Positions 13,522 through 26,074 of a stretch of 64,000 bases of DNA are shown in pieces. A model generated the notes under the pieces. It was not told the DNA's origin. It saw only the letters and a list, made by a program, of their open reading frames with translations, and ran no database searches. Source of the DNA: Nitrososphaerota archaeon (lineage in GTDB: Archaea; Thermoproteota; Nitrososphaeria; Nitrososphaerales; Gagatemarchaeaceae); NCBI GenBank assembly GCA_029785375.1, contig JAFLZV010000001.1, positions 12,320 through 76,319 on the forward strand, in the 5' to 3' direction. The position numbers and the translations under genes are program-made. Position 1 is the first letter of the stretch. Each line of letters opens with the position of its first letter.

Positions 13522-15746
13522 CTATTCCTTGTCGATGAATTCCTCGGCCTTCGGCGGGTCCGGCGGGAGTCCCTTGCGCTTCCTGATGTCCGTGACCAGC
13601 CCCCACAGCATGTTCTGAGGGACCGCCTGCCACGTCTTGAAGTGGGTGTTCCAGACAGCCTTGCCCGCCGTGGCTCCTCTCATCTTCTCGCTCAGGTCGA
13701 ACGTCTCGGCCGCGGGGATCTCTCCCTCCACCACTGTCATGACCTCCTTCTGGTCTATCCTGACCAGCTTCCCCCTCTTCGCGCTGATGACCCCGGTCAC
13801 CGCGCCTATGAGGTCTGACGGCCCCTTCACCTCTATCCCCAGTATGGGCTCCAGGAGAGTGGGGTTGGCTGACAGCATGGCCCCGAGTATGGCCCTCCGT
13901 GAAGCGGGCATGAGCTGGGCGTAGGTCCGGTGGGCTGGGTCCTCGTGGGGGACGAAGTTGGTGAGTGCCACCTTGACCCCTCGGGTGAACTCGTAGGCGA
14001 GCGGCCCGTTCTTCATGATGTCGTCGAAGCCTGCCCTGATGGAGTCCATCGACTCCTGCAGGAACTGGACCCCCTTGGTGACCTCGGTCAGGATGTTGCC
14101 CCTCTCGTCGACGGCCTGGAAGTTGCGGGCCTGGTCGGGGTCCCATCCGTGGTCGCGGAGGGTCTTGATCACCCCCTTCGTCTCCACGTTCTCGCTTATG
14201 GTCCCGTTGCGGATTAGCTCGACGACGTCGGGCTCAAGGGGCTCGACCTCGATGAAGATCTTGTTGTGCCTGTTAGGAGACCTGGCCATGATGGGGCCGG
14301 CGCGCGCGCGGATGGTCTCCCTGTAGTTGATGATTGGCGGCGAGGTGATGATCTCCAGCCCCGCCTGCTGAATCTGCGTGGTGGCTATCTCGAGGTGGAG
14401 CACCCCCATCCCTGCCATGAGGGTCTCCCCGGACTCCTGGTTGATCGTTATGACGAGGTTCGGGTCCTCGATGTTGAGCCTCCGCATCACCTCGACGAGC
14501 TTGGGGAGATCCCTCGGGTGCTTCGCCTCCACCGCCACAGTGACGACGGGCTCGCTGACATAGTGGATGGACTCGAACGTGGCGACCCCCTTCTGGTTCG
14601 AGATGGTCTCCCCCGACCTGATGTCCAGGCCGAGGAGCGCCGGGATGTTACCCGCAGGGAGCGAATCGACTATCTCCCGCTGAAAGCCCATGAATATCTG
14701 GACCGACTGTATCTTCCCCTCTCTCTTCGAGTTGAGAAGGTAGACCGTGTCGCCGTTGCTGACGCTGCCGGAGAAGAGCCTCCCGGTGGCCACGAGCCCC
14801 GCGGCGGGGTCGACGACCACGTTGGTGACCATCATGACCGTGGGTCCGTTCTCGTCGCAGGCGAGGAGGGCCTTCCCTACGTCGCTGTTGAGGTCCCCCT
14901 GTGGCCAGATCTTCGGGATGCGGTAGGTCTGGGCGACGTGAGGAGGCGGATGGTGCCTGACGACCATGCCCAGCAGAGCCTCGTGGAGAGGGAGCTTCTT
15001 GCCGAGCTCCTCCGGAGTCGAACTCTGATACGCGTTGATGATGTCCTTGAACGACATCCCCGCGGCCTTCGCCATGTCGAAGTTGAATCCCCACTTGTCC
15101 TTCGATGACCCGAACGCGACCTGGGCGTCCTGGACCGAGACCTTCCACTTCTGCTTGTACTCCGGTTCGGCGTATGTCTCGACGAGACGGTTGAAGTCCC
15201 TCACGATGCCGAAGAGCCACTCCTGCATCTTCTCAGGGGAGAGGCGGAGCTCCTTGATCAGCCGGTCGATTTTGTTGATGTAGACGACGGGGCGGACGCG
15301 CTCTTCAAGGGCCGAACGGGTCACAGTTTCGGTCTGGGTCATAATGGATTCGACGGCGTCGACTACGACAATTGCGCCGTCAACCGCCCGTAAGCTTCGA
15401 ACTACCTTGCCGGAAAAATCAATGTGTCCGGGAGTATCAATCAGGTTGATGACATAGGGCTTCCCCGCGGACTCGTAGTACAGCGTCACGTTGGCGGCTT
15501 TGATGGTCATCTGTCTTTGCTGCTCGAGTTCCATGTAGTCGAGAGCTAACGCTTGCCCTGCCACCGAAGGCGACAACATGCCAGTCGCAGCTAGGAGACT
15601 ATCGCTTGTGGTTGTCTCTATGGCAACGCCGAATGACTATCGGCGTTGATACCATGGTCCACGTGAGCGATGATTCCAAGGTTGCGTATCTGGTCCTTGT
15701 TGTGGACTATCTTCAGGGCTTCTGCTGTCGTCTTGAACTTCGGCAT
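13522..15746 (-). CDS. fusA: Translation elongation factor aEF-2, interrupted: exon 2 = 13522..15617, exon 1 = 15650..15746
   Basis: ATG 15746 gives MPKFKTTAEALKIVHNKDQIRNLGIIAHVDHG. After a 32-nt insert the frame of ORF 13522..15579 continues as KTTTSDSLLAATGMLSPSVAGQALALDYMELEQ...DTPGHIDF...HEDPAHR. The joined CDS is 2193 nt (730 aa), a normal aEF-2 length. Confidence 0.85.
15618..15649 (-). other. 32-nt insert in the aEF-2 P-loop Lys codon; candidate bulge-helix-bulge (BHB) mRNA intron
   Basis: RNA: UCAACGCCGAUAGUCAUUCGGCGUUGCCAUAG. Central 4-bp helix AUGG (15655-15652) / CCAU (15623-15620), 3-nt bulges UA|U and AG|A, inner 9-bp stem CAACGCCGA/UCGGCGUUG with a 7-nt loop. Removal joins GGU-A + AG-ACA-ACC into G-K-T-T. 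Confidence 0.6.
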
Positions 15747-15801: not shown

Positions 15802-16856
15802 TAGATTGTAGCATAATGTTCTCTGCCGCTCCAGTATCTCTAGCTCGACCCGTCGTCCGCCACCTCTCGGCTCAGAAGGACATGAACCTGTTGTAGAGCA
15901 CCACCTTCAGGGTGGCCTCTGCCTTCTGGCTCAGGAACCTCCTCGCCATGAGGGTGTCCCCGAGGACCCTCTTGAACGCAGAGAAGACTATCTCTGCCAT
16001 CCACCTCTTGCCGTAGCCCTTCAGCTCCTTCCACTTCTCGTACCCGACCCTGCGCACGAGGATCGCCTCGTCCTTCCTGAGGGGGGACCACTTGGCCTTC
16101 TCCGACGCGTTCTTCCTGAGCTTGATGGCAGGGTCGATGCCACGCTCGTGCATAGGGAAGTTCCTCCTGGAGTCGTAGGCAGAGTCCGCGTACGCCCTCG
16201 CCACCCTCCTCTTCCTTGCGACCTCCCTGACCATCGGGACGAACTTCTTCGTGTCCCCGGTCTTCTCGGACGTCACCCTGAACCCGACGATCTTCCCCGT
16301 CTTCCCATCCGCGACGACGTGGAGCTTGATGAACTTCCTCTTCTCCTTCCTCCAGATCGCCTCGATGTAGGAGCCCTTGTTCGTGGTGGAGAGGCCCGTC
16401 GAGTCGACGACCACGGTGATGGCGTCGTCGTCTTTCCCCTCCGCCATCTTTTCCACGTATTCTGGCTTCTTCCTCTTGACCATCGCCAGTATCCTCCTCC
16501 TGACCTGTGTGAAGTGCATCTCTTTAACGAAAGCGAGGTACTCGGAGAGTGACCCGGTCATGCCCTCTATCACCCTGTACGGCGCGTTGAACCCTACCCT
16601 GAAGAAGGACAGGAACTCGATGTAGGACTCTGGGAACTCGTACGGCCTCCCCGTCTTGTCGCCGTTCATCCCCTCAAGTTCGTCGTTCCAGCGACTGGCG
16701 AAGCCGAGGTCGAACAGGACCCTCCCTCTCTCCACCAGGGATTCGTTGTAGTCGTGCCATGACATTCCACGAGGCATGCCTCAACCGAGGCCGTGAGCGG
16801 ATTACGGAGGCAGGACAAGGGCGATAGACACAGAACTCAAGTTATGCTACAATCTA
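15802..16856 (-). mobile_element. Insertion sequence (1055 bp), one DDE transposase; IS5/IS4-like by architecture
   Basis: 15-bp terminal inverted repeats TAGATTGTAGCATAA (15802-15816) / TTATGCTACAATCTA (16842-16856), flanked by a 9-bp direct repeat CTTATCAGA (15793-15801 and 16857-16865). Confidence 0.85.
15872..16777 (-). CDS. DDE-type transposase of the IS
   Basis: 301 aa. Candidate catalytic segments VVVDSTG, AYADSAYD, GKRWMAEIVFSAFKR. Fills the IS between its inverted repeats. Confidence 0.85.
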   Translation of the reverse strand: MPRGMSWHDYNESLVERGRVLFDLGFASRWNDELEGMNGDKTGRPYEFPESYIEFLSFFRVGFNAPYRVIEGMTGSLSEYLAFVKEMHFTQVRRRILAMVKRKKPEYVEKMAEGKDDDAITVVVDSTGLSTTNKGSYIEAIWRKEKRKFIKLHVVADGKTGKIVGFRVTSEKTGDTKKFVPMVREVARKRRVARAYADSAYDSRRNFPMHERGIDPAIKLRKNASEKAKWSPLRKDEAILVRRVGYEKWKELKGYGKRWMAEIVFSAFKRVLGDTLMARRFLSQKAEATLKVVLYNRFMSF

Positions 16857-16864
16857 CTTATCAG

Positions 16865-16976
16865 AGCGTTGTTGAATAACTCCGAATCAGACCAGATTTA
16901 TGTTAAGTCGCACAGGAGTGGCTCGCCAGACAACCAGGTAGAATTATCATAGACACAGTAGTTATTCAACAAGCCT
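16865..16976. mobile_element. MITE-like non-autonomous element (about 112 bp)
   Basis: 17-bp imperfect terminal inverted repeats AGCGTTGTTGAATAACT (16865-16881) / AGTTATTCAACAAGCCT (16960-16976; 2 mismatches, 13-bp perfect core). No ORF. Flanked by CTTATCAG (16857-16864 and 16977-16984). Confidence 0.5.
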
Positions 16977-17011
16977 CTTATCAGGGGTCTCCTGTTAAGT
17001 TATCTGCGCTG

Positions 17012-18659
17012 TCACTGAAAGGGATTTGGGAAGGGCATTTCCGGCCATTTCTTCTCGAGTAGTTGCTTCACGGTGACAATCTGAATCTTCGGGTATTTCC
17101 TACCCCAAGTTGGCGATTCGTAGTATTCAGCGTCCCTCGCTTCCGTCTTCATGGGTTCAGTTGGCTCATCTAGGGTTATCAGAATCCCCATTGCGGCTTT
17201 CCAGTTGTTGACAGTCCCAATCAAATCCCGTACGTCGCTCGCGCCTACGTTCTCGCCACCCTTGGCTTGGATGATAATCCTTCGGAAGTTGGGGTCGTTA
17301 CCCTCCTTGAAGGTGAGATAACCGTCCCTTCCTCTGTCGGCCCCCTTCTTGCCGACCTTGCTCCCTTCTGGCGCTCCGATTGGTCGGGCGTCGAGCAAAG
17401 AAAGTGACCACCACTGGAATTGGTATTTGTCGGCCTTGGCGAGGCCCTGTGCCTCATTGAATGTGGTTGGCTCCCCTATAATCTGGTAATTGCGGGGCGT
17501 GTAGACCTTCATTTCCCTTAACGCGGATTTCATAATGGAGATTGCCAGATGTGTGATGTCGATTCCTATCCAATTCCGCTTCAATTCATTGGCCTCGAAG
17601 ATTGCTGTCCCGCAACCACAGAAGGGGTCGAGAACCCAGTCGCCTTCGTCAGAACTGGCCTCTATGATTCTGTCGAGCAATGCAGCCGGCTTCTGAGTGG
17701 GATAACCAAGCCGCTTAGGAGATTGCGGTGGGATTGGGCCAATGTCAGTCCAGAGGTCTTGCACATCGACGCCACCAAGATCGTCCTTATACTGCATGAA
17801 CATCGGCGTCCCTCCCTCTTTCTTCGGCCAAGAAATGCGGCCAATCTCGTCCAGTTTGTCAAGCGCCGTTTGAACATCTGGGAACGGTCCCTTCCCCAAC
17901 AAAGGTCGGACATAGCCAGGTATCGCCCAATGCCTGCCGATCTTCGTCGGGTCAATCCCACGCCAAGGCTTTCCGGACGAGCCGTTGCGCGTTCCAGAAC
18001 CAGTTAGAAGCGTAAGTCGATATTGCCCCCTTGAATCTTCGAACTTGAAGAAATTGTCGAGGTATTCCTGCGAGTATTCGAGGGGTTTCGGATGCCAGAC
18101 ATACTCATCCGATTTGGTATAGAAGAAAATGGTATCATGAATCGGGCCATATCGATTCGCGCCGCTAGGCGTAAGTTCTCTTCCACGAAATCTCGTTCCT
18201 GAAACGAGTGGGGCCGAAAATGGTATCGAGGATGACTTTCAGGTAATGGCTCGCTGTCGGGTCACAATGGAGGTAGAGAGAGCCGTTGTCCTTCAGGACG
18301 CGATGAAGTTCTACTAGGCGAATCGCCATCATCACAAGGTAAGCGGTAAGGTCATTCCTTCCCAAGAAGGCGACGAAAGCCTTGACGGCCTCGCCTACCT
18401 CTGGGGAGCGCTCTTGTAACTCAACATAAGCAGCTTCTGCCGCATCGTCCCAATGCCAGAAATCATCGAATGCTTGAATCTGGGCCGCTGACTGTTTACC
18501 GCCCTTCTCCTTGAAGAGGACGTTGTATGTCTCCTTATTGTTGAACGGAGGGTCGAGATAAATCAGCGCGATGCTTTCAGATCGTAAGTAGTCTCTGAGG
18601 ATCTTGAGATTGTCGCCATAGAATAGGGTGTTGACCTTCGGATTGGAAGGTGAAGTCAA
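17012..18659 (-). pseudogene. N4/N6 DNA methyltransferase fused to a C-terminal Mrr-like PD-(D/E)xK domain, split by a single frameshift near 18165-18172
   Basis: N-terminal ORF 18165..18659 has motif IV (YLDPPF) and ends ...NEISWKRTYA-stop. The same protein continues in the +1 frame (SGANRYGPIHDTIFFYTKSDEYVWHPKP...) into ORF 17012..17902, which has motif I (VLDPFCGCGT) and an Mrr-like tail (GRDGYL...IIIQAKGG). Confidence 0.75.
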
Positions 18660-18720: not shown

Positions 18721-20004
18721 TCAGGGCAGTTTAAGGGAGCTTTCACTACGTTGTTTCAGGTGGTCAAGCATAGAAAAAGGGGGATGGGAAGACTGTCTGT
18801 TGAGCCGATAGAATAACAACTGTTGCTTTGTTTCACTATCGAACCCGACGAGTTTTGAGAACTTGGAGATTTCCCCGGCGCTGGTAATCTCACTGGTCCA
18901 GAGAACAGTCAACTCTTTGCGAAAGTCCGAGTATGCGACTGAAGGCTTCAAAGTTGTCTCCATCCCGAACGATCTCTGAAGAAGTGCTGCCGAGGCCAGA
19001 AGCAGTGAAGGATGCTGGTTGACAATTTCTTTGGCATCGGGGGGCAGATTGTTGTATGGTGTGACGCGCGGTTTTCGCGAGATTAGATTCCTGTAAGGTT
19101 CAAGCTGGGGAACGGCTACAGTTTGAACGAGTCGCATGAACCGAGCCATCCCTTCAGCGGTCCACAAGGCTCTGAGATATGCAGATGCGACGTTACTAGG
19201 AGATGAAAACAGCCACAGTGGAGTTGCGTTGTTGGCAACTTTCTGTCGAAGTTTCGTGTTAATCCCTGCCAAGTTCAGAAGAGTTGGCATGAGGAGACTC
19301 CAGTTTGTTTCGCTTATGTCTGGATAGATGCCTGTATTGACCCGCATGCGTCCGATGACGTGTTCGACAGCCCGCTTCATTAGATCATGGAGCTGTTGGT
19401 CTTTGTTCGTGAAGGTACAGTTTCCGTGCTTGGAGTCAGTGTAGTATCCCAGAATTGCAGCTCCTTCCGCATTGAAGAAGTTGAATGGGAGTTTGGGTTC
19501 GATCTCCTTAGGCCAATTGTTTTTGTGGCACTTCACGCGGAGCACGCAGGGTTCAAGTTGGTCGATGTCGAAGCTAACATGCTCCCTAGCTCGGAATAGG
19601 CTTTCGATGGTGATGTAGCCGTAGTATTTTGCTACAGCACACGAGTAGATGTTCTCGAGGCCAAGACTTTTGGCTTCTTTGGCGCTGTATCTCTGCCTGA
19701 TTGTTTTCCAGAGGTCTGCCAGAATCGAGAGGCCACGTTCAGAGAGATGAATTGCGGTCTTGCCAGGGAGGTCACTGAGATGAATCAGAGGCTTCCCAGG
19801 ATTGATACGATAGTGTGCTTCGAGTTGGTCCAGCCACTCTGGCCTGTATTGGTGCAGCCGACGACTTTGTGTAGTTATTTGCGCAGCACCTAGGTTCCTG
19901 ACTCTGGAAATTGCATACTCGATTTCGAAGGTCTTGGAATCTGTTCCCTTCTTTTCCCCTTTGTTCGATTCGTCGTTCGGTCTCGTGTTGTCCATAGTCT
20001 GCAT
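18721..20004 (-). CDS. Free-standing double-motif LAGLIDADG-like protein (homing-endonuclease fold), function unknown
   Basis: 427 aa. Two LAGLIDADG-like motifs, AAILGYYTDSKHG and ASAYLRALWTAEGMA. AT-richer codon usage than its surroundings (by eye). Confidence 0.5.
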   Translation of the reverse strand: MQTMDNTRPNDESNKGEKKGTDSKTFEIEYAISRVRNLGAAQITTQSRRLHQYRPEWLDQLEAHYRINPGKPLIHLSDLPGKTAIHLSERGLSILADLWKTIRQRYSAKEAKSLGLENIYSCAVAKYYGYITIESLFRAREHVSFDIDQLEPCVLRVKCHKNNWPKEIEPKLPFNFFNAEGAAILGYYTDSKHGNCTFTNKDQQLHDLMKRAVEHVIGRMRVNTGIYPDISETNWSLLMPTLLNLAGINTKLRQKVANNATPLWLFSSPSNVASAYLRALWTAEGMARFMRLVQTVAVPQLEPYRNLISRKPRVTPYNNLPPDAKEIVNQHPSLLLASAALLQRSFGMETTLKPSVAYSDFRKELTVLWTSEITSAGEISKFSKLVGFDSETKQQLLFYRLNRQSSHPPFSMLDHLKQRSESSLKLP

Positions 20005-20354
20005 TTCCTCTTAACGGCCAGGCTGTGCCAGTCCTGAACAACGACCGAATCTGTTGCGAAAGTTTGGATGTGTTGGTGGTCTGTTAGAACTGGTCCATTG
20101 CTTCGCTGTACTGATGACCAGTCACAACCGTTTCCTTGTCTTCCCTTTCCTCCTTCCGCATGGTCAGTCGGTCGCCTCCCCACCTTCAGCGTGCTTTGCT
20201 CGCGGGCCGTTCCTATGCGGACCTGTCTCGCGCCTGACCTCTCGATCGGGCGTTCATCTTGCACTCCGATGGGGCACGGAAACCTCTGGGATGTTACCCA
20301 GATTTCTATACTGCTTCACAAAGCGTTACCAAACCACAGCCTTTCATTCACACG

Positions 20355-20467
20355 TCGTGACCGTGGGCACGGTTTCGTGCGGGGACGGCACCACAAGGTA
20401 ACGTTTCGTGACTCTGAACCCGCGGCACTGTCACGATCTGTGAGCCACCCTTCAAAGGAGAGTCACG
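20355..20467. promoter_or_regulatory. Cluster of TCGTGAC / GTCACGA motifs upstream of the HerA-like gene
   Basis: TCGTGAC 20355-20361, TTTCGTGC 20373-20380, TTTCGTGAC 20404-20412, GTCACGA 20430-20436, GTCACG 20462-20467. All lie within 130 bp of ATG 20481. Confidence 0.3.
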
Positions 20468-20480
20468 CCCGACGACGGGC

Positions 20481-21653
20481 ATGGCCCCGAAAGGCTCCAT
20501 AGTCGTCGGGGAGCAGCTGCGCACCCTCGACCCCACCCCGAGGGGGGTCGTCACCCTGGACCTGGAGGCGCTCAGCAGGCATGTCGCGATACTTGGGACC
20601 ACTGGGTCGGGGAAGTCGACCTGCGCCGCGATGATCGCCCGGGAGCTGGGCGCGCTTGGCAAGGCGGTCGTCGTCCTGGACAGGACGGGGGAGTACGTGG
20701 AACTCCTCAGGTCGGCCGCGCCGGCGGTGCTCACCCCCGGGAGCGACTTCGCCATTTCTCCCTTCGACCCGCGCGGGAAGTTCGACCACGAGCGCACGGA
20801 CGAATGGATCTCGCTCCTGGAGCACTACAGCAGGGTGAGCTTCGGGGTTGGCCTCTCCCCGCTGCAGAACCGGGTGCTCAGAGACGCCCTGGAGTCATAC
20901 TTCCACGGGACCCAGAGGCCCCTGCCTGTCCGCGAGCTGGTCCGGAGGCTCCAAGAGGCCGAGGACGAGCTCTTCAAGCTCAGGGGGTGGGTAGAGTCGA
21001 TAGAAGCGCTGGTCTCAAAGCTCTGGCCCCTGACCCACGGCGCCATAGGAAGGACCCTCGACGCCCAGGGCGGAGGGTTCGAGACAACCAGCCTCTTCGG
21101 GGCCGGGGTGAAGGTAGTGGACCTCTCGGGGCTCCCGGACGACAGGGCGAAGAACATGCTGAGCCAGCTGTTGCTCAAGGAGGTATACGAAGAGACCAGG
21201 AAGCGGGGGAGGACGGAGGCGCTGCGTCTGGTGATGGTCATCGATGAGGCCCAGAACCTGGCTCCGGTCTTGAAGGACTACACGAGCATCCCGGAGAGGT
21301 GCGCCATGGAGCTCCGAAAGTATGGATTCTCCCTGGTGGTCTGCGCGAGCAGGCCCTCGCTGCTGAGCCAGAACGTCATCGCGAACAGCAACACCCTCAT
21401 CTGCCACATGCTGAACAACGAGACGGACCTGGAAGCCGCGGCGGGGTTCTTCGTAGGTTCGAATGTGAAAGACTCGCTGAGGCGGCTCCCTGTGGGGGTG
21501 GGGATGCTTCAGGTGAACCACCCGGAGCCAAAGGACGCGGTCAGGGTCAGGATTGGCACCGACGGACAACGGAAGAATGTCCTAGGCGACCTGGTAGTGG
21601 GAGCGTTCAGGGACCAGCGTCACCGAGCGGCCGAAGCCTTTCGCCCCGGATGA
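20481..21653 (+). CDS. HerA/FtsK-like P-loop ATPase (DUF87-type), lacking an N-terminal HAS barrel
   Basis: 390 aa. Walker A ILGTTGSGKST, Walker B VMVIDEAQNLAP, then VVCASRPSLLSQNVIANSNTLICHML. Confidence 0.8.
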   Translation: MAPKGSIVVGEQLRTLDPTPRGVVTLDLEALSRHVAILGTTGSGKSTCAAMIARELGALGKAVVVLDRTGEYVELLRSAAPAVLTPGSDFAISPFDPRGKFDHERTDEWISLLEHYSRVSFGVGLSPLQNRVLRDALESYFHGTQRPLPVRELVRRLQEAEDELFKLRGWVESIEALVSKLWPLTHGAIGRTLDAQGGGFETTSLFGAGVKVVDLSGLPDDRAKNMLSQLLLKEVYEETRKRGRTEALRLVMVIDEAQNLAPVLKDYTSIPERCAMELRKYGFSLVVCASRPSLLSQNVIANSNTLICHMLNNETDLEAAAGFFVGSNVKDSLRRLPVGVGMLQVNHPEPKDAVRVRIGTDGQRKNVLGDLVVGAFRDQRHRAAEAFRPG

Positions 21654-22005
21654 GCAAAGCAAGCATCTTCGCCCCGTCGTCCAGGGTGTTCATCTGGTAT
21701 CGCGGCCTCTCGCGGGACCCAACGTTGGTCACGACCCCGTATCGCTCCAGCCTTTCCAGGGCCAGCCTGAACCGCCCTTCCCTCAGAACCGACCGCCTCC
21801 CCGCCGCGCACCTCGAACCAATCTCCCGGAGGGGGAGCGCCTCCTGGGCGTTGGTCAGGACGCAGACCAGCCTGTACTCCGGAGAGCCCCCGAAGGCGAC
21901 GTGCACCGCCTTCCTCGCTTCGTTGAGGAGGTCAGCCTGCACAAGGACCTCGACCATCCGGAAGGCCCTGCCGAGGCCCCTGGAGGTGTCCCCGGGGCTA
22001 GGCAT
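21607..22005 (-). CDS. Small winged-helix protein, last gene of the minus-strand operon
   Basis: 132 aa. EYRLVCVLTNAQEALPLREIGSRC...LALERLERYGVVTN resembles a wHTH. Its start overlaps the upstream gene end by 8 nt. Its 3' end overlaps the convergent ATPase gene by 47 nt. Confidence 0.45.
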   Translation of the reverse strand: MPSPGDTSRGLGRAFRMVEVLVQADLLNEARKAVHVAFGGSPEYRLVCVLTNAQEALPLREIGSRCAAGRRSVLREGRFRLALERLERYGVVTNVGSRERPRYQMNTLDDGAKMLALLIRGERLRPLGDAGP

Positions 22006-23038
22006 AGATCCGCGCCACAGCCCTCAACTGCGCCCTGGTGAGCTTCACTTCGGCGCCCCCCGGGGTCTCGACGGACACCTTTCCTTCCGCTTCGCCCCTG
22101 GCCATGACCCTGTCGGAGAACGGCTCCGTCCTGGAGGCGTCCAGCGCGGCGAGGAAAGGGGAGAACGCGTCGGGCCCGGGCCAGCCGTGCCTTTCCTGGA
22201 TCTTCTCGACGACTTCGGCGAAGAGAGGCTGCCTGGCGGGGGTGAGATCGGAAGGGGGTATGGAGGGGGTACCCGCAGGCTCGGAGAGCCTGAACGCCCT
22301 GTGGGAGACGACCAACCCCTCCTTGGTCCTTACGGCGAAGACGTCGAATGGGAGGGACGACACGGCCTCCAGGTCTTCGGTCCCGATGTCGAGGCGGTCG
22401 AGCGTCAGTGAGAGCCTCTTGCCGGCGTCGCGGCTGTCCAGGGGGAGAAGGTGGGCCCCCCTCTGCGATAGCATCCGCGCCTTGCACCGCAGGGTCCTGA
22501 GGACCTTCTCCTCGGCTCCCCTGTAACCAAGTGCGTAGACGCTCACGACCTGGAACGCCGAGGGGGACCTGCCCGCGAAGACCAGGAGCCGGCCGTCCAG
22601 GGCGGCGACCCCCCTCGTCTGATCCTGCGCTTCGAGCTTGACCTCGGCGAGTGCGTGCCAGCGCAGCGGGAAGAGCCTGCTCCTGAGGAGTATCGAGTCA
22701 GTCATGGGGACCACCCCGCCCCCCACCCCGTGCCTGCGCGCGAGGGGCCAGAAGACTACGGCGAGCCCGCCCGTGAAGAAGGCTATCGGCGAGAGCGTCC
22801 CACCGGCTTCCACCGCGGCTAGCGCCAGCAGGAAAAGCACGCCCCCCGCCGTATACCTGCCCCAGGGACGCCGGGGCCTCGCCAGGACCTGCTGCTTGAG
22901 CATGACCGCACGCTGGGCCCTCGGCTTACGGAAGGAGTAGACGAGGTAGACCAGGGCCAGCAGGAAGATGGGCCACGCGCCGAGACCCAGGGCGATTAGC
23001 CCCGCTAAGACCGCGAGCATTCGCGCTCCCCACCCCAT
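21998..23038 (-). CDS. Membrane protein (about 4 TM) with a large soluble C-terminal domain, no recognisable family
   Basis: Start placed at MGWGARMLAVLAGLIALGL (ATG 23038), which overlaps the upstream stop as ATGA. Hydrophobic N-terminal third, then about 230 aa soluble. Confidence 0.55.
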   Translation of the reverse strand: MGWGARMLAVLAGLIALGLGAWPIFLLALVYLVYSFRKPRAQRAVMLKQQVLARPRRPWGRYTAGGVLFLLALAAVEAGGTLSPIAFFTGGLAVVFWPLARRHGVGGGVVPMTDSILLRSRLFPLRWHALAEVKLEAQDQTRGVAALDGRLLVFAGRSPSAFQVVSVYALGYRGAEEKVLRTLRCKARMLSQRGAHLLPLDSRDAGKRLSLTLDRLDIGTEDLEAVSSLPFDVFAVRTKEGLVVSHRAFRLSEPAGTPSIPPSDLTPARQPLFAEVVEKIQERHGWPGPDAFSPFLAALDASRTEPFSDRVMARGEAEGKVSVETPGGAEVKLTRAQLRAVARIYA

Positions 23039-24048
23039 CAGTGGAACCCCTCCCCGTCCTGCCGGGCGTAGGCGAACCTGGTGTACTCCTCGAGGGCTGG
23101 GTGCCTGGCGGCCCAGAAGGCCTTGGTGCACTCCTCCTTCTCGTCCGGGTTGAGCGCCTCCGGATTCCTGTCTTTGTTCCTCGACGCCGTGGACTTCGTG
23201 AGCTCGAGGGAGAACTTCGCGTCGTGGCCCAGGATGACACCGCCGTAGGGTATCCGGTCCCAGGGGTTGATGGGGTCGATGGAGACGTGGCTTGTGACCA
23301 GGACGGCGATCTTGAACTCGGCGCAGAGGCGCTGGGCGTGGGCCAGCAGCATTGCGAGGCCCGCGCTCCGGGCAGGGAGGTCCTGGGTGCTCGGGAAGGA
23401 GGCCTTGAACGGCGCGGATATCGAGTCATAGACGAGGAGCTTGGCGCCGGTGTCCCGGATGATCTGATGCAGCGCTGACTGATAGGTTGGCGTCTGCCTC
23501 ATCTTCAGCTCGACCCTCCCCCCGCTCGAGACCTCCTTGGCCGCGTCGATGCCGTGGAGGTTAAGCAGGTCCACCACCTCAGGGGTCTGGAACACGAGGA
23601 CCGAGGGCCCCTTCGGAGGGAGCTCGACTGTGAAGTCAGGCGAGAAGATGTCAGCCACGGCGCTGAGGTGGGAGTCGGAGTAGGAGACTCCGAGATGGCT
23701 CAGGGCTCCGTCGATCGCGTTGATGAGCTGTCCCCTCGTCACCGGTTTCCTCTTCGGAGAGACCTTTGGCGCCCTCTCGAGCTTTATCTCCGCGACGTTG
23801 AGTTCCTTCCCTAGTCTCTTGGCCATCCTGTCACGCCAGTATGGGACGAGATAGCTCGCGTAGGACTGCTCGGTGTCGAGTATGACGGCGCTCCCGCCGC
23901 ACGCGGCCGCGTGGCAGGCGGCCTGGAAGGAGATTATGCTCTTCCCCAGGGCCTTCTCCCCGAAGATCTGAGTGACCGTCCCCGTGGCCAGGCCGCCGTC
24001 CGTCAGGGAGTCCACGGCGGAGCATCCGGTGGTGAGGTGCTCCATCAC
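23038..24048 (-). CDS. RecA-superfamily ATPase (RadA-paralog/KaiC-like) with a long insertion between Walker A and B
   Basis: 336 aa. GLATGTVTQIFGEKALGKS (Walker A), KLLVYDSI (Walker B), LVTSHVS. About 130 aa lie between the motifs. Confidence 0.65.
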   Translation of the reverse strand: MMEHLTTGCSAVDSLTDGGLATGTVTQIFGEKALGKSIISFQAACHAAACGGSAVILDTEQSYASYLVPYWRDRMAKRLGKELNVAEIKLERAPKVSPKRKPVTRGQLINAIDGALSHLGVSYSDSHLSAVADIFSPDFTVELPPKGPSVLVFQTPEVVDLLNLHGIDAAKEVSSGGRVELKMRQTPTYQSALHQIIRDTGAKLLVYDSISAPFKASFPSTQDLPARSAGLAMLLAHAQRLCAEFKIAVLVTSHVSIDPINPWDRIPYGGVILGHDAKFSLELTKSTASRNKDRNPEALNPDEKEECTKAFWAARHPALEEYTRFAYARQDGEGFH

Positions 24049-25268
24049 CCGCTCAGCCCCTGGAGGAGGCGCCTGCCTGTCTCCGTCACGGTGTAAGAGA
24101 GGATCTTCGGGCCGCCGCCGGCCTCCTTCGGCTCAAGGACCAGGTACCCCTCTGAATGGAGCCTGTCTATCTCGGCCGCGACGTCCGCCGGGAGGAACTG
24201 CACGGAGAGGTAGGAGACCACGGACTGCCTGTTGGCCGATTCATACCTGGAGACCTCGTCGAGGATCGTCTTCGTGAGCTCCGCGCTGGGTCTCTTGGGC
24301 AGGACCAGCCTGGGGGCACCGGGCAAAGACATGGGCCTGATGATGCGTGGGACGAACCCCTGCGTCTCATCTGAGCGGTCGTCACAGACGGTGTAGGAGC
24401 AAGCGAGGGCCGCGGCCTGCCTCCGGGCATTCCTGCCGTTCCATGCTTCGCTTGAGTAGACTCTTACCTGCATCGAGTCTGTCAGCTCGCCGCTGAGGAG
24501 GGCAGGGAGGGAGGTGGCGAGGACGAGCGGGGTTTTCGATTCGAGGAGGCGCGCCAGGAGCTTCGCTGGGTTCTGGTAGCGGGTGAGGCGCCTGAAGAGA
24601 CGGTGAGCGCCGGTGATGAGGAGGGCGTCTGGGGAGGAGACCGGACCGGAAAGGAGATGCACGAGCTTGGCGACGTAGAGCCCCGCGGCGAGCTCTGCGG
24701 CCTGGGGGTAGGGGGCGCTGGCGAAGGTCACCAGGGCTCGTCCCGCCGTCAGCTCGTCGAATGCGTCCGCCCTGGTGGCGTCGAGGTGCCTGAGGGACCC
24801 GATCCTCCCCTTCAGCTTGTCGACATAGTACCCCCTGAAGCCTTCGACCGCTCCCAGGACGTCGTACAGCGCGGCGGGGGTCGCCAGGTCGTTCTGCTCC
24901 GAGAGCCTCTGCAGGGAGGCCGAGAGTATCGCCTCGTCCTCTGAGGTGAGGTCGAGGGCGGCGGCGTAGGCAGAGGCGACGAGCTGGCCGTGCATCGCAT
25001 CATCCCCCTCGAGGTGGAACGCCTCGTACAGCATCGAGCGGTAGTCGAACGTCCTGTAATAGCCTTGGACGTCGGTGGAGATCGAGCCGTCGATGTCAAG
25101 AATCGTGAGCCCCGACCCTGCCTCCGCCCCGGCGTAGGCGAACAGGCTCGCCATGGCACCGGCCTGCCTGCCCAGGATGAGGACGCGGTCGCCCAGCCCA
25201 CGGACCCCGACGCGCCCCCCTGGCCTGTCGAGGGAGTAGCCGAGCCATCCGTCTCCTTTCGCGCTCAA
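24045..25268 (-). CDS. HerA/DUF87-like protein with degenerate Walker A/B, plus a C-terminal winged helix
   Basis: 407 aa. RVLILGRQAGAMASL...LTILDIDGS, DALLITGAHRLF and LVLATSLPALLSGELTDSMQVRVY align position-for-position with ILGTTGSGKST / VIDEAQ / VVCASRPSLL of the 20481 gene, but the catalytic K/S and DE are lost. The C-terminus EIDRLHSEGYLVLEPKE...YTVTETGRRLL is wHTH-like. Confidence 0.5.
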   Translation of the reverse strand: MSAKGDGWLGYSLDRPGGRVGVRGLGDRVLILGRQAGAMASLFAYAGAEAGSGLTILDIDGSISTDVQGYYRTFDYRSMLYEAFHLEGDDAMHGQLVASAYAAALDLTSEDEAILSASLQRLSEQNDLATPAALYDVLGAVEGFRGYYVDKLKGRIGSLRHLDATRADAFDELTAGRALVTFASAPYPQAAELAAGLYVAKLVHLLSGPVSSPDALLITGAHRLFRRLTRYQNPAKLLARLLESKTPLVLATSLPALLSGELTDSMQVRVYSSEAWNGRNARRQAAALACSYTVCDDRSDETQGFVPRIIRPMSLPGAPRLVLPKRPSAELTKTILDEVSRYESANRQSVVSYLSVQFLPADVAAEIDRLHSEGYLVLEPKEAGGGPKILSYTVTETGRRLLQGLSG

Positions 25269-25307
25269 CGGGTCAGCGGGTGCATGGTTTACTTAAGGCA
25301 CTGACGC

Positions 25308-25329
25308 ACAAGTTGAGAGCACAACTTGT
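25308..25329. promoter_or_regulatory. Perfect 8-bp inverted repeat ACAAGTTG-N6-CAACTTGT in the divergent promoter region
   Basis: Read directly. A related half-site ACAAGTTGTGAGC recurs at 25625-25637, just after the wHTH gene. Confidence 0.35.
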
Positions 25330-25360
25330 TCATATCAGGCTGGGTCCGTCCGGGGGCCGG

Positions 25361-25624
25361 TTGAGGAACCGGGACACGACGGTGATCTACTGGGAGCTTC
25401 TCAGGACCATGGCATCGGGCCCCCAACTCCCGACCAGGCTGGCCCGGACCACCAACATCCCGTACAACAGGCTCGGGGAGTACCTGGAGTTCCTGACCAC
25501 GAATGGGTTCGTGAAAGCTGATGCCTCCGATGGTCATGAGAGGTACTCGGTGACGCCGAAGGGGATGGAGGTCCTCGGCAGGCTGGACAGCGGCCTGAAG
25601 ATGCTCTTCTCCGCCCTGGAGTGA
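25361..25624 (+). CDS. Small winged-helix DNA-binding protein (divergent from the operon)
   Basis: IYWELLRTMASGPQLPTRLARTTNIPYNRLGEYLEFLTTNGFVKADASDGHERYSVTPKGMEVL. ORF opens at 25280, but I favour TTG 25361 because the palindrome and an AT-rich box lie in 25287-25329. Confidence 0.55.
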   Translation: MRNRDTTVIYWELLRTMASGPQLPTRLARTTNIPYNRLGEYLEFLTTNGFVKADASDGHERYSVTPKGMEVLGRLDSGLKMLFSALE

Positions 25625-25654
25625 ACAAGTTGTGAGCTTGCGTTATAAGCAGCG

Positions 25655-26074
25655 GTGGGCCTGAGACAGATGATGCCCGAGGACAAGGACCCCGGCGTGT
25701 CCATGATCGAGCTCCAGGAGGAGTTCATCAGGCACATGGAACGAGGAGGAAAGAAGATCAGGATGCTCGCCCTCGTCGCCACTGTCACGGGCGCCTACTT
25801 CGCTGTCAGCTACTTCGTCCAACTGGTTGTCGTCCCCTACGGGCTTGGGGTCACGAGCCAGACTGTGGACCTGGTGGCCCCGGGCCTGGTGGCTGTGGGG
25901 ATCCTGAGCCTCGCAGTCTCGATCCTCTGGTGCTATGCAGGGGCGAGGAACCTTCTGTTCGAAAGGAGGCTGGCTGAGAGGATCAGGGAGGTGAGGAAGC
26001 TTCAGTCGGAGACCGCCAAGAAGTATGGGCTAGGGGGACAGAGGCAGGGGACATCTTCGGTTCCGCCAGATTAG
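25655..26074 (+). CDS. Small membrane protein (2 TM), unknown function
   Basis: 139 aa with two hydrophobic segments (MLALVATVTGAYFAVSYFVQLVVV and LVAVGILSLAVSILWCYA). Confidence 0.45.
   Translation: MGLRQMMPEDKDPGVSMIELQEEFIRHMERGGKKIRMLALVATVTGAYFAVSYFVQLVVVPYGLGVTSQTVDLVAPGLVAVGILSLAVSILWCYAGARNLLFERRLAERIREVRKLQSETAKKYGLGGQRQGTSSVPPD

Follow-up and report, generated by a model that had tools for sequence, protein, structure and literature searches.

A conserved cluster encoding a HerA-fold pseudo-ATPase, a RadA-family ATPase and an orphan membrane protein, with an associated structured RNA, as a candidate nucleic-acid-handling system of Group I.1c Nitrososphaerota

A 64-kb stretch of DNA from a Nitrososphaerota archaeon (contig JAFLZV010000001.1; hereafter ‘the window’) carries a cluster of seven genes, termed here A to G, to which we add a LAGLIDADG-like gene (H) and a pseudoknotted RNA element located upstream of A. 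Genes E, D and C form the core of the cluster, and encode, respectively, a catalytically dead protein of the HerA/FtsK fold that carries a winged helix, a RadA/Rad51-family ATPase with a conserved insertion, and a membrane protein without homologues in known families. Gene A encodes a compact ATPase of the HerA/FtsK superfamily that is catalytically intact. The most defensible description of the cluster, as judged from sequence and predicted structure, is that of a new lineage-specific, membrane-associated ATPase system that would handle nucleic acids and would include a dedicated structured RNA. To the more specific reading that the proteins form a membrane-associated complex for membrane-anchored DNA processing or translocation, we assign a probability of roughly 0.4. 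An earlier examination of the DNA letters alone (the sequence-only reading) had singled out the seven genes and had offered defence or DNA translocation as a guess at their role. Its account did not include H, the RNA or an operator-like array that precedes A, all three of which extend the cluster.

The distribution of the cluster was assessed on 86 loci (designated by L numbers). Gene E is present in 44 non-redundant loci, 36 of which extend at least 2.1 kb downstream of it, and the order E-D-C is retained in every one of these 36, with C always the third gene. Identities to the window proteins vary together across the loci (55-93% for D, 35-76% for E and 31-97% for C). The sequence-only reading had pointed to gene-order conservation in other genomes as the check on a chance juxtaposition, and the order is kept in more than 40 loci. 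An explanation of the cluster as unrelated open reading frames (ORFs) that happen to be adjacent, or as ORFs miscalled in G+C-rich DNA, has virtually nothing left to recommend it. Such DNA does yield many spurious long ORFs (67 of at least 60 amino acids (aa) were listed in 13 kb), but the explanation is refuted by the full-length homologues that all seven proteins have in the same order at many loci, and the AlphaFold2 (AF2) models of E and C are confident.

Three deeply diverged types of locus can be distinguished. Type 1 loci resemble the window in that F and G are divergent upstream of E and the gene for elongation factor EF-2 lies downstream. Type 2 loci, whose E proteins are 38-48% identical to that of the window, have an arginase gene upstream, with F-G located approximately 3-5 kb away beside an ABC transporter gene. 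Type 3 loci (E 35-39% identical) encode a longer C, and in L045, L051, L056 and L058 the whole A-G arrangement is preserved while no other genes are shared with the window. F-G, B and A have thus long accompanied the core and are not passengers of the island that adjoins the window copy. Chromosomal synteny of the core with EF-2, arginase, ABC transporter and major facilitator superfamily (MFS) genes is maintained, and the core diverges along with these neighbours. All homologues come from metagenome-assembled genomes (MAGs) of Nitrososphaerota (Thaumarchaeota); two of these MAGs, SubAcS15-57 and AcS1-27, belong to the Gagatemarchaeaceae, a family of Group I.1c (PMC10640624). When the E profile was searched exhaustively, it recovered 93 relatives among 1.84 billion cluster representatives, approximately 35 of them full length. 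No relatives of E were found in IMG/VR viral contigs or plasmids, where A yielded only generic DUF87 matches. The neighbourhood is chromosomal and specific to a non-ammonia-oxidizing, Group I.1c/Gagatemarchaeaceae-like lineage of Nitrososphaerota, and the inheritance of the cluster is apparently vertical.

Some MAGs carry two diverged E-D-C types: L014 and L031 in REEA66, L017 and L032 in SubAcS15-57, and L028 and L043 in SMAG_U244. The E copies in these MAGs are approximately 65% and 42% identical to the window protein, a pattern that suggests an ancient duplication unless the bins are mixed. Another MAG, SMAG_U6305 (L001 and L046), holds one E-D-C module together with an orphan RNA-H-A unit.

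The operon is encoded on the minus strand and its genes are tightly coupled. E (24045-25268, 407 aa) is the first gene, followed by D (23038-24048, 336 aa), C (21998-23038, 346 aa) and B (21607-22005, 132 aa), the last of which encodes a probable winged-helix protein. From the plus strand, A (20481-21653, 390 aa) converges on B with an overlap of 47 nt (21607-21653), and F (25280-25624) and G (25655-26074, 139 aa), likewise on the plus strand, are divergent from E. All seven ORFs were found at the coordinates given earlier, and the convergent overlap between A and B also holds. The operon junctions had been described as chained overlaps of 4-8 nt that include ATGA at both E/D and D/C. Read directly, E and D do overlap by 4 nt (24045-24048) and C and B by 8 nt (ATGCCTAG, 21998-22005), but D and C share the single base 23038, and the sequences are GTGA for E/D and TGATG for D/C rather than ATGA. 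Among D homologues, the first codon is ATG, GTG, TTG or CTG and the second is mostly ATG, which supports the overlapping start of D. The start of C is backed by a database protein (P0121) of 346 aa that is 100% identical. Translation of E begins with TTG at 25268, and an AT-rich box (TTAAGTAAA) approximately 17-26 nt upstream is probably the TATA box of a leaderless operon transcript. Only 11 nt lie between this start and that of the longest F ORF (GTG, 25280), and the box falls within the 5ʹ part of the F ORF and is possibly a shared promoter element. The true start of F may lie downstream of 25280.

As the sequence-only reading had proposed, E is a HerA-like protein that lacks catalytic residues and ends in a winged helix. 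Like B and C, it matches no family in Pfam, NCBIfam or PADLOC. Comparison of its sequence profile with the Protein Data Bank (PDB) gave weak PadR-type matches at the C-terminus and spurious matches to PPR repeats; a fold search was required to reveal the relationship to HerA. Structure prediction took the form of AF2 models of E and C. The E model has a predicted local distance difference test score (pLDDT) of 85 and a fold of the HerA/VirB4/TrwB type, with Foldseek matches to HerA (9x1m and 4d2i) at E-values of 3e-7 to 8e-7. Across HerA, DndH-C, VirB4 and TrwB the E-values range from 3e-7 to 1e-4 at template modelling (TM) scores of approximately 0.5. In an alignment of 28 sequences, the Walker A position reads LLLGxRAGxLA, from which the lysine is gone, and the DE of Walker B is replaced by T[G/E]AHR. 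A winged helix of the PadR-like kind makes up the last 80 residues. An hhalign comparison of E with family A is collinear over 259 columns and places the degenerate motifs in register, with weak statistics (E = 0.009, probability 4%). E is a catalytically dead HerA-fold protein carrying a winged helix.

No protein of the cluster is more conserved than D, whose mean column identity is 77%. It matches the Pfam Rad51 family (PF08423) at 1.4e-18 and 67.5 bits, against a cutoff of 22, and profile comparison with the PDB returned DMC1, Rad51 and RadA at approximately 1e-15, in two pieces. The match to Rad51/RadA models is split by a conserved insertion at approximately residues 64-195, in agreement with the earlier description of D as a RecA-superfamily ATPase with an insertion of about 130 aa. 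The protein begins at the ATPase core, without an N-terminal helix-hairpin-helix domain, and scores below the NCBIfam equivalog cutoffs for RadA (72.5 versus 259) and RadB (64.9 versus 172.4). Its Walker A (GEKALGKS) and Walker B (LLVYDS) motifs are invariant, as are segments after Walker B that correspond, when matched by eye, to the L1 and L2 DNA-binding loops of RadA.

The ATPase class of D bears on a different reading of the cluster, in which D would be a KaiC-like signalling ATPase, C and G would be membrane sensors, and E, B and F would provide winged helix-turn-helix (wHTH) outputs. D matches Pfam KaiC (PF06745) at 7.7e-6 over residues 6-59 only, with 25.9 bits placing it just under the cutoff of 26.6, and NCBIfam KaiC_arch_4 at 4.5e-6; these are weak matches of the KaiC/ArlH type. 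Archaeal KaiC-like ATPases are reportedly often accompanied by wHTH and membrane partners, and the cluster offers three wHTH modules, two small membrane proteins and an operator-like array of CGTGAC sites upstream of A. However, D scores far better against Rad51, RadA and DMC1 than against KaiC, no sensor domain is recognizable in C, and a pure signalling module would not be expected to contain a LAGLIDADG-like gene or HerA-type proteins, one of them a pseudo-ATPase and the other active. We therefore regard such a module as doubtful, and consider it similarly doubtful that wHTH outputs of this kind would control transcription, for example that of A through the CGTGAC sites.

C was predicted earlier to be a protein with four transmembrane helices and an uncharacterized soluble domain, and this description stands. 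Approximately four N-terminal transmembrane helices precede an alpha/beta soluble domain of approximately 240 aa (AF2 pLDDT 82). A basic loop at residues 36-58 has a net charge of +8 and, by the positive-inside rule, the hairpin that follows it and hence the alpha/beta domain would reside on the cytoplasmic side of the membrane. None of the 25 members of the C family matches Pfam, no match was obtained by sequence profile against the PDB, and neither C nor G matches NCBIfam or Pfam. The fold search that had been suggested for the soluble domain likewise found nothing in the PDB (best E = 0.22) or BFVD. In L020 (8216-9250), and also in L019, C is 97% identical to the window copy at a locus where E is 66% and D 87% identical, which points to recombination inside the operon or to a chimeric contig end.

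The remaining ATPase, A, has invariant GTTGSGKS (Walker A, from residue 39), hhhDEAQ and ELRKYG motifs. It has only approximately 23 residues ahead of the ATPase core and is without a HAS barrel or transmembrane segment, consistent with its earlier description as a catalytically intact HerA-like protein lacking that barrel. It matches Pfam DUF87 at 1.4e-17 (65 bits, cutoff 23.2) and falls below the FtsK_SpoIIIE cutoff (21.7 versus 24). CedD is its best NCBIfam match (1.3e-29), yet the score of 103 bits is far short of the cutoff of 600; for CedB the score is 19 bits and the cutoff 700. Scores against the NCBIfam HerA equivalogs are 56-75 bits, with cutoffs of 800-970; those for NF040819 and NF040937 (56.7 and 62.4 bits, cutoffs 970 and 800) derive from P-loop segments only. 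Of the 15 informative loci of the A clade (genes at least 44% identical to A), 10 have C and D convergent downstream. In the other five (L046, L071, L083 and two fragments), A occurs without the operon. More distant A-like genes (less than 44% identical) are located elsewhere, and E-D-C is nearby in none of five. Both A and B count as accessory members of the cluster, and most loci with E-D-C have no A.

A strictly A-associated RNA element of approximately 145 nt (20137-20280, plus strand) lies upstream of A. Frequent G-U pairs identify its sense strand as that of A. A covariance model built on three helices found the RNA in 18 loci, with E-values from 4e-12 to 6e-42. Every match is upstream of an A-clade gene and on the same strand, and none occurs elsewhere in 771 kb of related loci. 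The RNA precedes all 14 of the 14 full-length A genes that have enough upstream sequence, and the three misses concern A fragments. Copies upstream of A-clade genes include those of L049 (4377-4522), L017 (6500-6644, minus strand), L014 (11151-11294, minus strand), L045 (6737-6881), L051 (7705-7849), L058 (7698-7845) and L046 (5020-5161). The window RNA is 94% identical to its counterpart in L049, though the proteins that flank it are only 29% (H) and 63% (A) identical.

The proposed structure consists of five helices, of which three, P1 (20155-20161/20215-20221), P2 (20169-20173/20205-20209) and P4 (20230-20237/20246-20253), are supplemented by two that form a pseudoknot, PKa (20178-20183/20269-20274) and PKb (20191-20194/20261-20264). 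The 5ʹ end consists of a tract rich in C and U, with CCUCC-type motifs. In the model-derived alignment, 92.3% of cells are paired, compared with 29-46% when the partners are slid, and 17 of 30 pairs change on both sides. Compensatory cells number 64 versus 20.2 ± 3.4 in shuffled controls, and none of 500 shuffles reaches the observed value. PKa is outside the covariance model, yet five of its six pairs covary. The alignment was redone with the covariance model; RNAalifold on the first MAFFT alignment had missed P1, with a register shift of one column. No Rfam family is matched at gathering thresholds, and a search at E-values up to 10 gave one chance snoRNA match, located outside the element. 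Extension in the 3ʹ direction produced no consensus fold; the 3ʹ boundary given here is provisional. The sequence GGGGAGGGG, just upstream of the start of C (23039-23055, minus strand), shows sequence complementarity to the invariant CCUCCCC in the RNA (20175-20183) and also encodes the invariant EGFH end of D. The CCUCC motifs of the 5ʹ tract resemble an anti-Shine-Dalgarno sequence.

Between the RNA and A, a spacer (20281-20480, plus strand) is likely to be the operator/promoter region of A. It contains a TATA-like sequence (TTCAAAGG) approximately 33 nt ahead of the A start, and conserved boxes occur near -30 relative to that start. It also holds CGTGAC/GTCACG sites at 20356 and 20407 (plus strand) and at 20430 and 20462 (minus strand), which amounts to four within 112 nt, compared with 42 in the whole window, and orthologous spacers in L045, L060, L058, L017 and L014 contain the CGTGAC half-site as well. 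The array (20356-20467) looks like an operator for one of the wHTH proteins. If A has its own regulated promoter, as these features suggest, then the RNA would be a separate transcript; alternatively, the RNA may be a long structured leader of A. It would thus act either as a cis-regulatory leader of A or as a partner of A in trans. In the packaging motor of phage phi29, a ring of pRNA works with the ATPase gp16, and an RNA is thereby dedicated to a DNA-translocating ATPase of the ASCE type. To our knowledge, this viral motor is the only known parallel for the pairing of an RNA with a HerA-type ATPase. By analogy, the RNA of the cluster could be a trans-acting subunit of A, and the cluster a cellular RNA-containing machine for DNA translocation and recombination, but we consider this idea speculative and improbable. 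The two systems are alike in that a structured RNA of approximately 120-170 nt is dedicated to an ASCE-type DNA-translocating ATPase. Unlike the phage motor, the cluster is cellular and has no portal or capsid, and the RNA-A interaction is hypothetical.

On the far side of the RNA lies H (18721-20004, minus strand, 427 aa), which is divergent from A. The sequence-only reading had stated that A has no nuclease partner, a claim that seems untenable, in that a gene of the H family is divergently upstream of A in all 11 A-clade loci with enough upstream DNA. The window copy matches Pfam LAGLIDADG_3 weakly (E = 0.017, 15.8 bits, cutoff 22.5), and 8 of 12 family members match this family (PF14528), the best at 1e-6; alignment reveals two LAGLIDADG-type motifs with acidic residues kept. 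H also occurs between C and EF-2 in type 2 loci without A, where it is directly upstream of a 95%-identical EF-2 gene. The family splits into three deep subfamilies, which are independent of operon type and swapped among loci, and the G+C content of H is 0.495, versus approximately 0.65 for the cluster. Two roles can be envisaged for H: it may work with A as a site-specific nuclease or DNA-binding protein, or it may be a free-standing, selfish homing-endonuclease gene persisting beside highly conserved sequence.

The cluster could instead comprise two unrelated units that happen to be adjacent, namely the E-D-C(-B) operon and an RNA-A-H unit with a selfish H. RNA-H-A does occur without E-D-C-B in L046, L071 and L083, just as E-D-C occurs without A in most loci, and both the low G+C content and the independent subfamilies of H would fit. 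However, A is convergent to B-C-D-E in 10 of 15 informative loci that represent very divergent lineages sharing no other synteny, E shares the compact architecture of A, and B looks degenerate in L005 and L020, both of which are without A. We consider two separate units somewhat unlikely, and we hold the same view of the accompanying proposal that H persists beside a highly conserved target, either the RNA gene or, in loci without A, the EF-2 gene, despite the position of type 2 H genes. Since this alternative concerns only part of the cluster, the probabilities assigned to the various readings need not sum to one. Another gene found repeatedly next to A/H or C (L046 1436-3109, L051 3387-5093, L047 5206-6957, and approximately 9.6-11.3 kb in L016 and L023) encodes a highly conserved radical-SAM protein with an HMPTM-type zinc ribbon, and may belong to the tetraether-lipid synthase family. 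In L047, a Thermoproteota locus, it is directly upstream of a distant A-like gene.

Homologues of B (132-158 aa) follow C in 12 loci. The earlier assignment of B as a small wHTH protein is partly upheld, by MarR/IclR/TrmB/Z-alpha signals that are consistent and yet weak. Loci without A either have no B or carry a degenerate-looking copy, as exemplified by the 103-aa ORFs with unrelated C-termini in L005 (9249-9560) and L020 (9300-9611); these shortened copies are consistent with a dependence of B on A. F and G had been described as a divergent wHTH gene and a protein with two transmembrane helices, and both assignments proved correct. F matches Pfam HTH_45 (2.2e-11) and NCBIfam Sso10a_fam (7.5e-11), and hydropathy and charge give G two transmembrane helices and basic cytoplasmic termini. 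F adjoins E in type 1 and type 3 loci and is within approximately 5 kb of it in type 2 loci, and G is always paired with F. A mere association of F and G with the ABC transporter by synteny was ruled out, given that they are kept beside E in type 3 loci that share no other genes.

The window copy of the cluster adjoins an island (15872-18659) of insertion sequence (IS) and restriction-modification (RM) genes, as had been noticed earlier. The island is inserted between EF-2 (13522-15579) and H, and includes a DDE_Tnp_1 transposase (15872-16777) and an N6/N4 DNA methylase that is split into ORFs 18165-18659 and 17012-17902, the latter fused to an Mrr/NA-iREase-like domain. Membership of A and B in this island was ruled out by their native G+C content and by their conservation with the operon in deep relatives. 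The location nevertheless bears on whether the cluster could be an anti-phage or anti-plasmid system of the HerA-plus-effector kind that resides in a defence island, with A as the sensor or motor and H or another member as the effector. A matches the PADLOC models HerA (2.4e-25) and mad8 (9e-20), a nuclease-like LAGLIDADG gene is paired with A, and the cluster abuts the IS element and methylase/Mrr-like gene. Moreover, in L045 (8380-8977) A and B are separated by an inserted PIN-domain gene that is immediately preceded by a small ORF, the two perhaps forming a toxin-antitoxin pair; D and E appear frameshifted in this long-read contig. Against these points, the A matches are limited to generic P-loop segments, B, C, D and E have no PADLOC match (F has only weak matches of the wHTH type), and no defence effector domain was found in the cluster. 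The IS/RM genes are not seen at the corresponding position in related loci such as L049, L005 and L001. The cluster occurs in one or two copies per genome at fixed positions. Taken together, the kept synteny, the co-divergence with housekeeping neighbours, the conservation of D, the lack of PADLOC models for B to E, the lack of viral or plasmid relatives and the absence of the island from that position in related loci disfavour defence. An anti-phage role is unlikely, and we give little credence to an effector system of this design. Of the two roles guessed at by the sequence-only reading, DNA translocation remains reasonable, albeit unproven, as does a role in DNA processing.

Comparison with named systems places the cluster outside each of them, as the sequence-only reading had surmised for repair, Ced/Ted and defence systems, and profile searches of Pfam, NCBIfam and PADLOC did not assign the genes to any described system. 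The memberships that do apply are the FtsK-HerA superfamily at the level of fold (A by Pfam DUF87, E by Foldseek) and the Pfam Rad51 family. The combination of genes was not present in the curated libraries searched, and no description of it was found in the literature searched.

The cluster resembles the archaeal HerA-NurA module, which acts with Mre11-Rad50 in the resection of double-strand breaks, in that its HerA-superfamily ATPase is encoded next to a nuclease-type gene (H), with a RadA-family protein encoded nearby, and the best structural matches of E are the HerA proteins of Thermococcus and Sulfolobus. However, A and E lack the HAS barrel, A is far under the HerA equivalog cutoffs, E gives no sequence match, and library scans found no NurA, Mre11 or Rad50 domain in any cluster protein. 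The cluster has a nuclease-like gene of the LAGLIDADG type and a dead HerA-like member, and membrane proteins and an RNA belong to its neighbourhood.

Similarities to the Ced/Ted DNA import systems of archaea include ATPases of the HerA/VirB4 clade combined with membrane proteins, and CedD as the best NCBIfam match of A. Ced consists of CedA/A1/A2, CedB and CedD, with CedB and CedD forming a pair of paralogous ATPases (PMC11868833), and this pair is a conceptual parallel to A and E. Unlike CedB and CedD, A has neither a transmembrane segment nor a VirB4-like N-terminal domain, and it reaches only 103 of the 600 bits required for CedD. The cluster contains no polytopic protein like CedA or VirB6, C having only approximately four transmembrane helices. 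Conversely, Ced has no RadA-like or LAGLIDADG component, and no pilus genes were recognized among the examined genes that adjoin the cluster.

Defence systems that pair HerA with an effector (Sir2-HerA, DUF4297-HerA and MADS mad8) share with the cluster the HerA/mad8 matches of A and its pairing with a putative nuclease, but the cluster has no Sir2 or DUF4297 effector and no match to models of the cognate partners, and it is syntenic, chromosomal and apparently vertically inherited. Among the RadA paralogues RadB and aRadC, D is like RadB in being a Rad51/RadA core ATPase without the N-terminal domain, and, as in the Rad51-paralogue mediator complexes of eukaryotes, it is partnered with an inactive P-loop protein. 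It differs from these paralogues by its insertion, by scores under the RadA and RadB cutoffs, by an inactive partner (E) with a HerA fold rather than a RecA-paralogue fold, and by its coupling to a membrane protein. FtsK, which combines a membrane anchor, an FtsK/HerA-type motor and a C-terminal gamma winged helix, offers another comparison, in which its parts would be distributed over separate genes: an anchor (C), an FtsK/HerA fold with a C-terminal wHTH (E) and an active motor (A). However, the wHTH-bearing protein E is inactive, A is under the FtsK_SpoIIIE cutoff and often absent, and no Xer recombinase is linked.

We favour a DNA-related role at the membrane for the cluster because both of its ATPase families act on DNA and because it encodes three wHTH modules. 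The cellular role is likely to be a DNA transaction at the membrane, for example chromosome processing, or else recombination-coupled exchange or uptake of DNA. In such a complex, C (and G) would hold the assembly at the cytoplasmic side of the membrane by way of the cytoplasmic domain of C. E would form an inactive ring or scaffold, with its wHTH in contact with DNA or a partner, and D would be the obligate motor or ssDNA-binding ATPase, probably acting on single-stranded nucleic acid. Where present, A would supply double-stranded DNA translocase activity. B, F and the CGTGAC sites would contribute regulation.

Several results pull in the opposite direction. C has approximately four transmembrane helices only and no recognizable channel-like architecture. 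The absence of A beside most E-D-C loci means that a double-stranded DNA motor is not obligatory. The near-cutoff score of D for Pfam KaiC (25.9 versus 26.6 bits) is compatible with a signalling ATPase that does not bind DNA, and the low G+C content and swapped subfamilies of H fit a selfish gene rather than a partner. In addition, the minimum free energy of the RNA is not better than that of shuffled sequences (z = 0.76), a result that holds for either strand, so that it is covariation that carries the case for its structure.

The non-ammonia-oxidizing Thaumarchaeota are abundant in acidic soils, and little is known of how they handle DNA. The combination described here is unusual. It unites two HerA-type proteins, one a pseudo-ATPase and the other compact and active, with a highly constrained RadA paralogue, a structurally orphan membrane protein, a gene of the LAGLIDADG type and an RNA. 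We know of few archaeal structured non-coding RNA motifs that have covariation support, and the strict tie of this RNA to one protein family makes its function directly testable. If the RNA were part of the machinery, the resulting machine could serve, at the membrane of Group I.1c Thaumarchaeota, for the exchange of chromosomal DNA or for site-specific gene conversion. If the cluster does encode a machine for DNA exchange or processing, then it would be a further case in which an inactive paralogue partners an active ring ATPase, and, in archaea, would add a third type of system to Ced/Ted and HerA-NurA.

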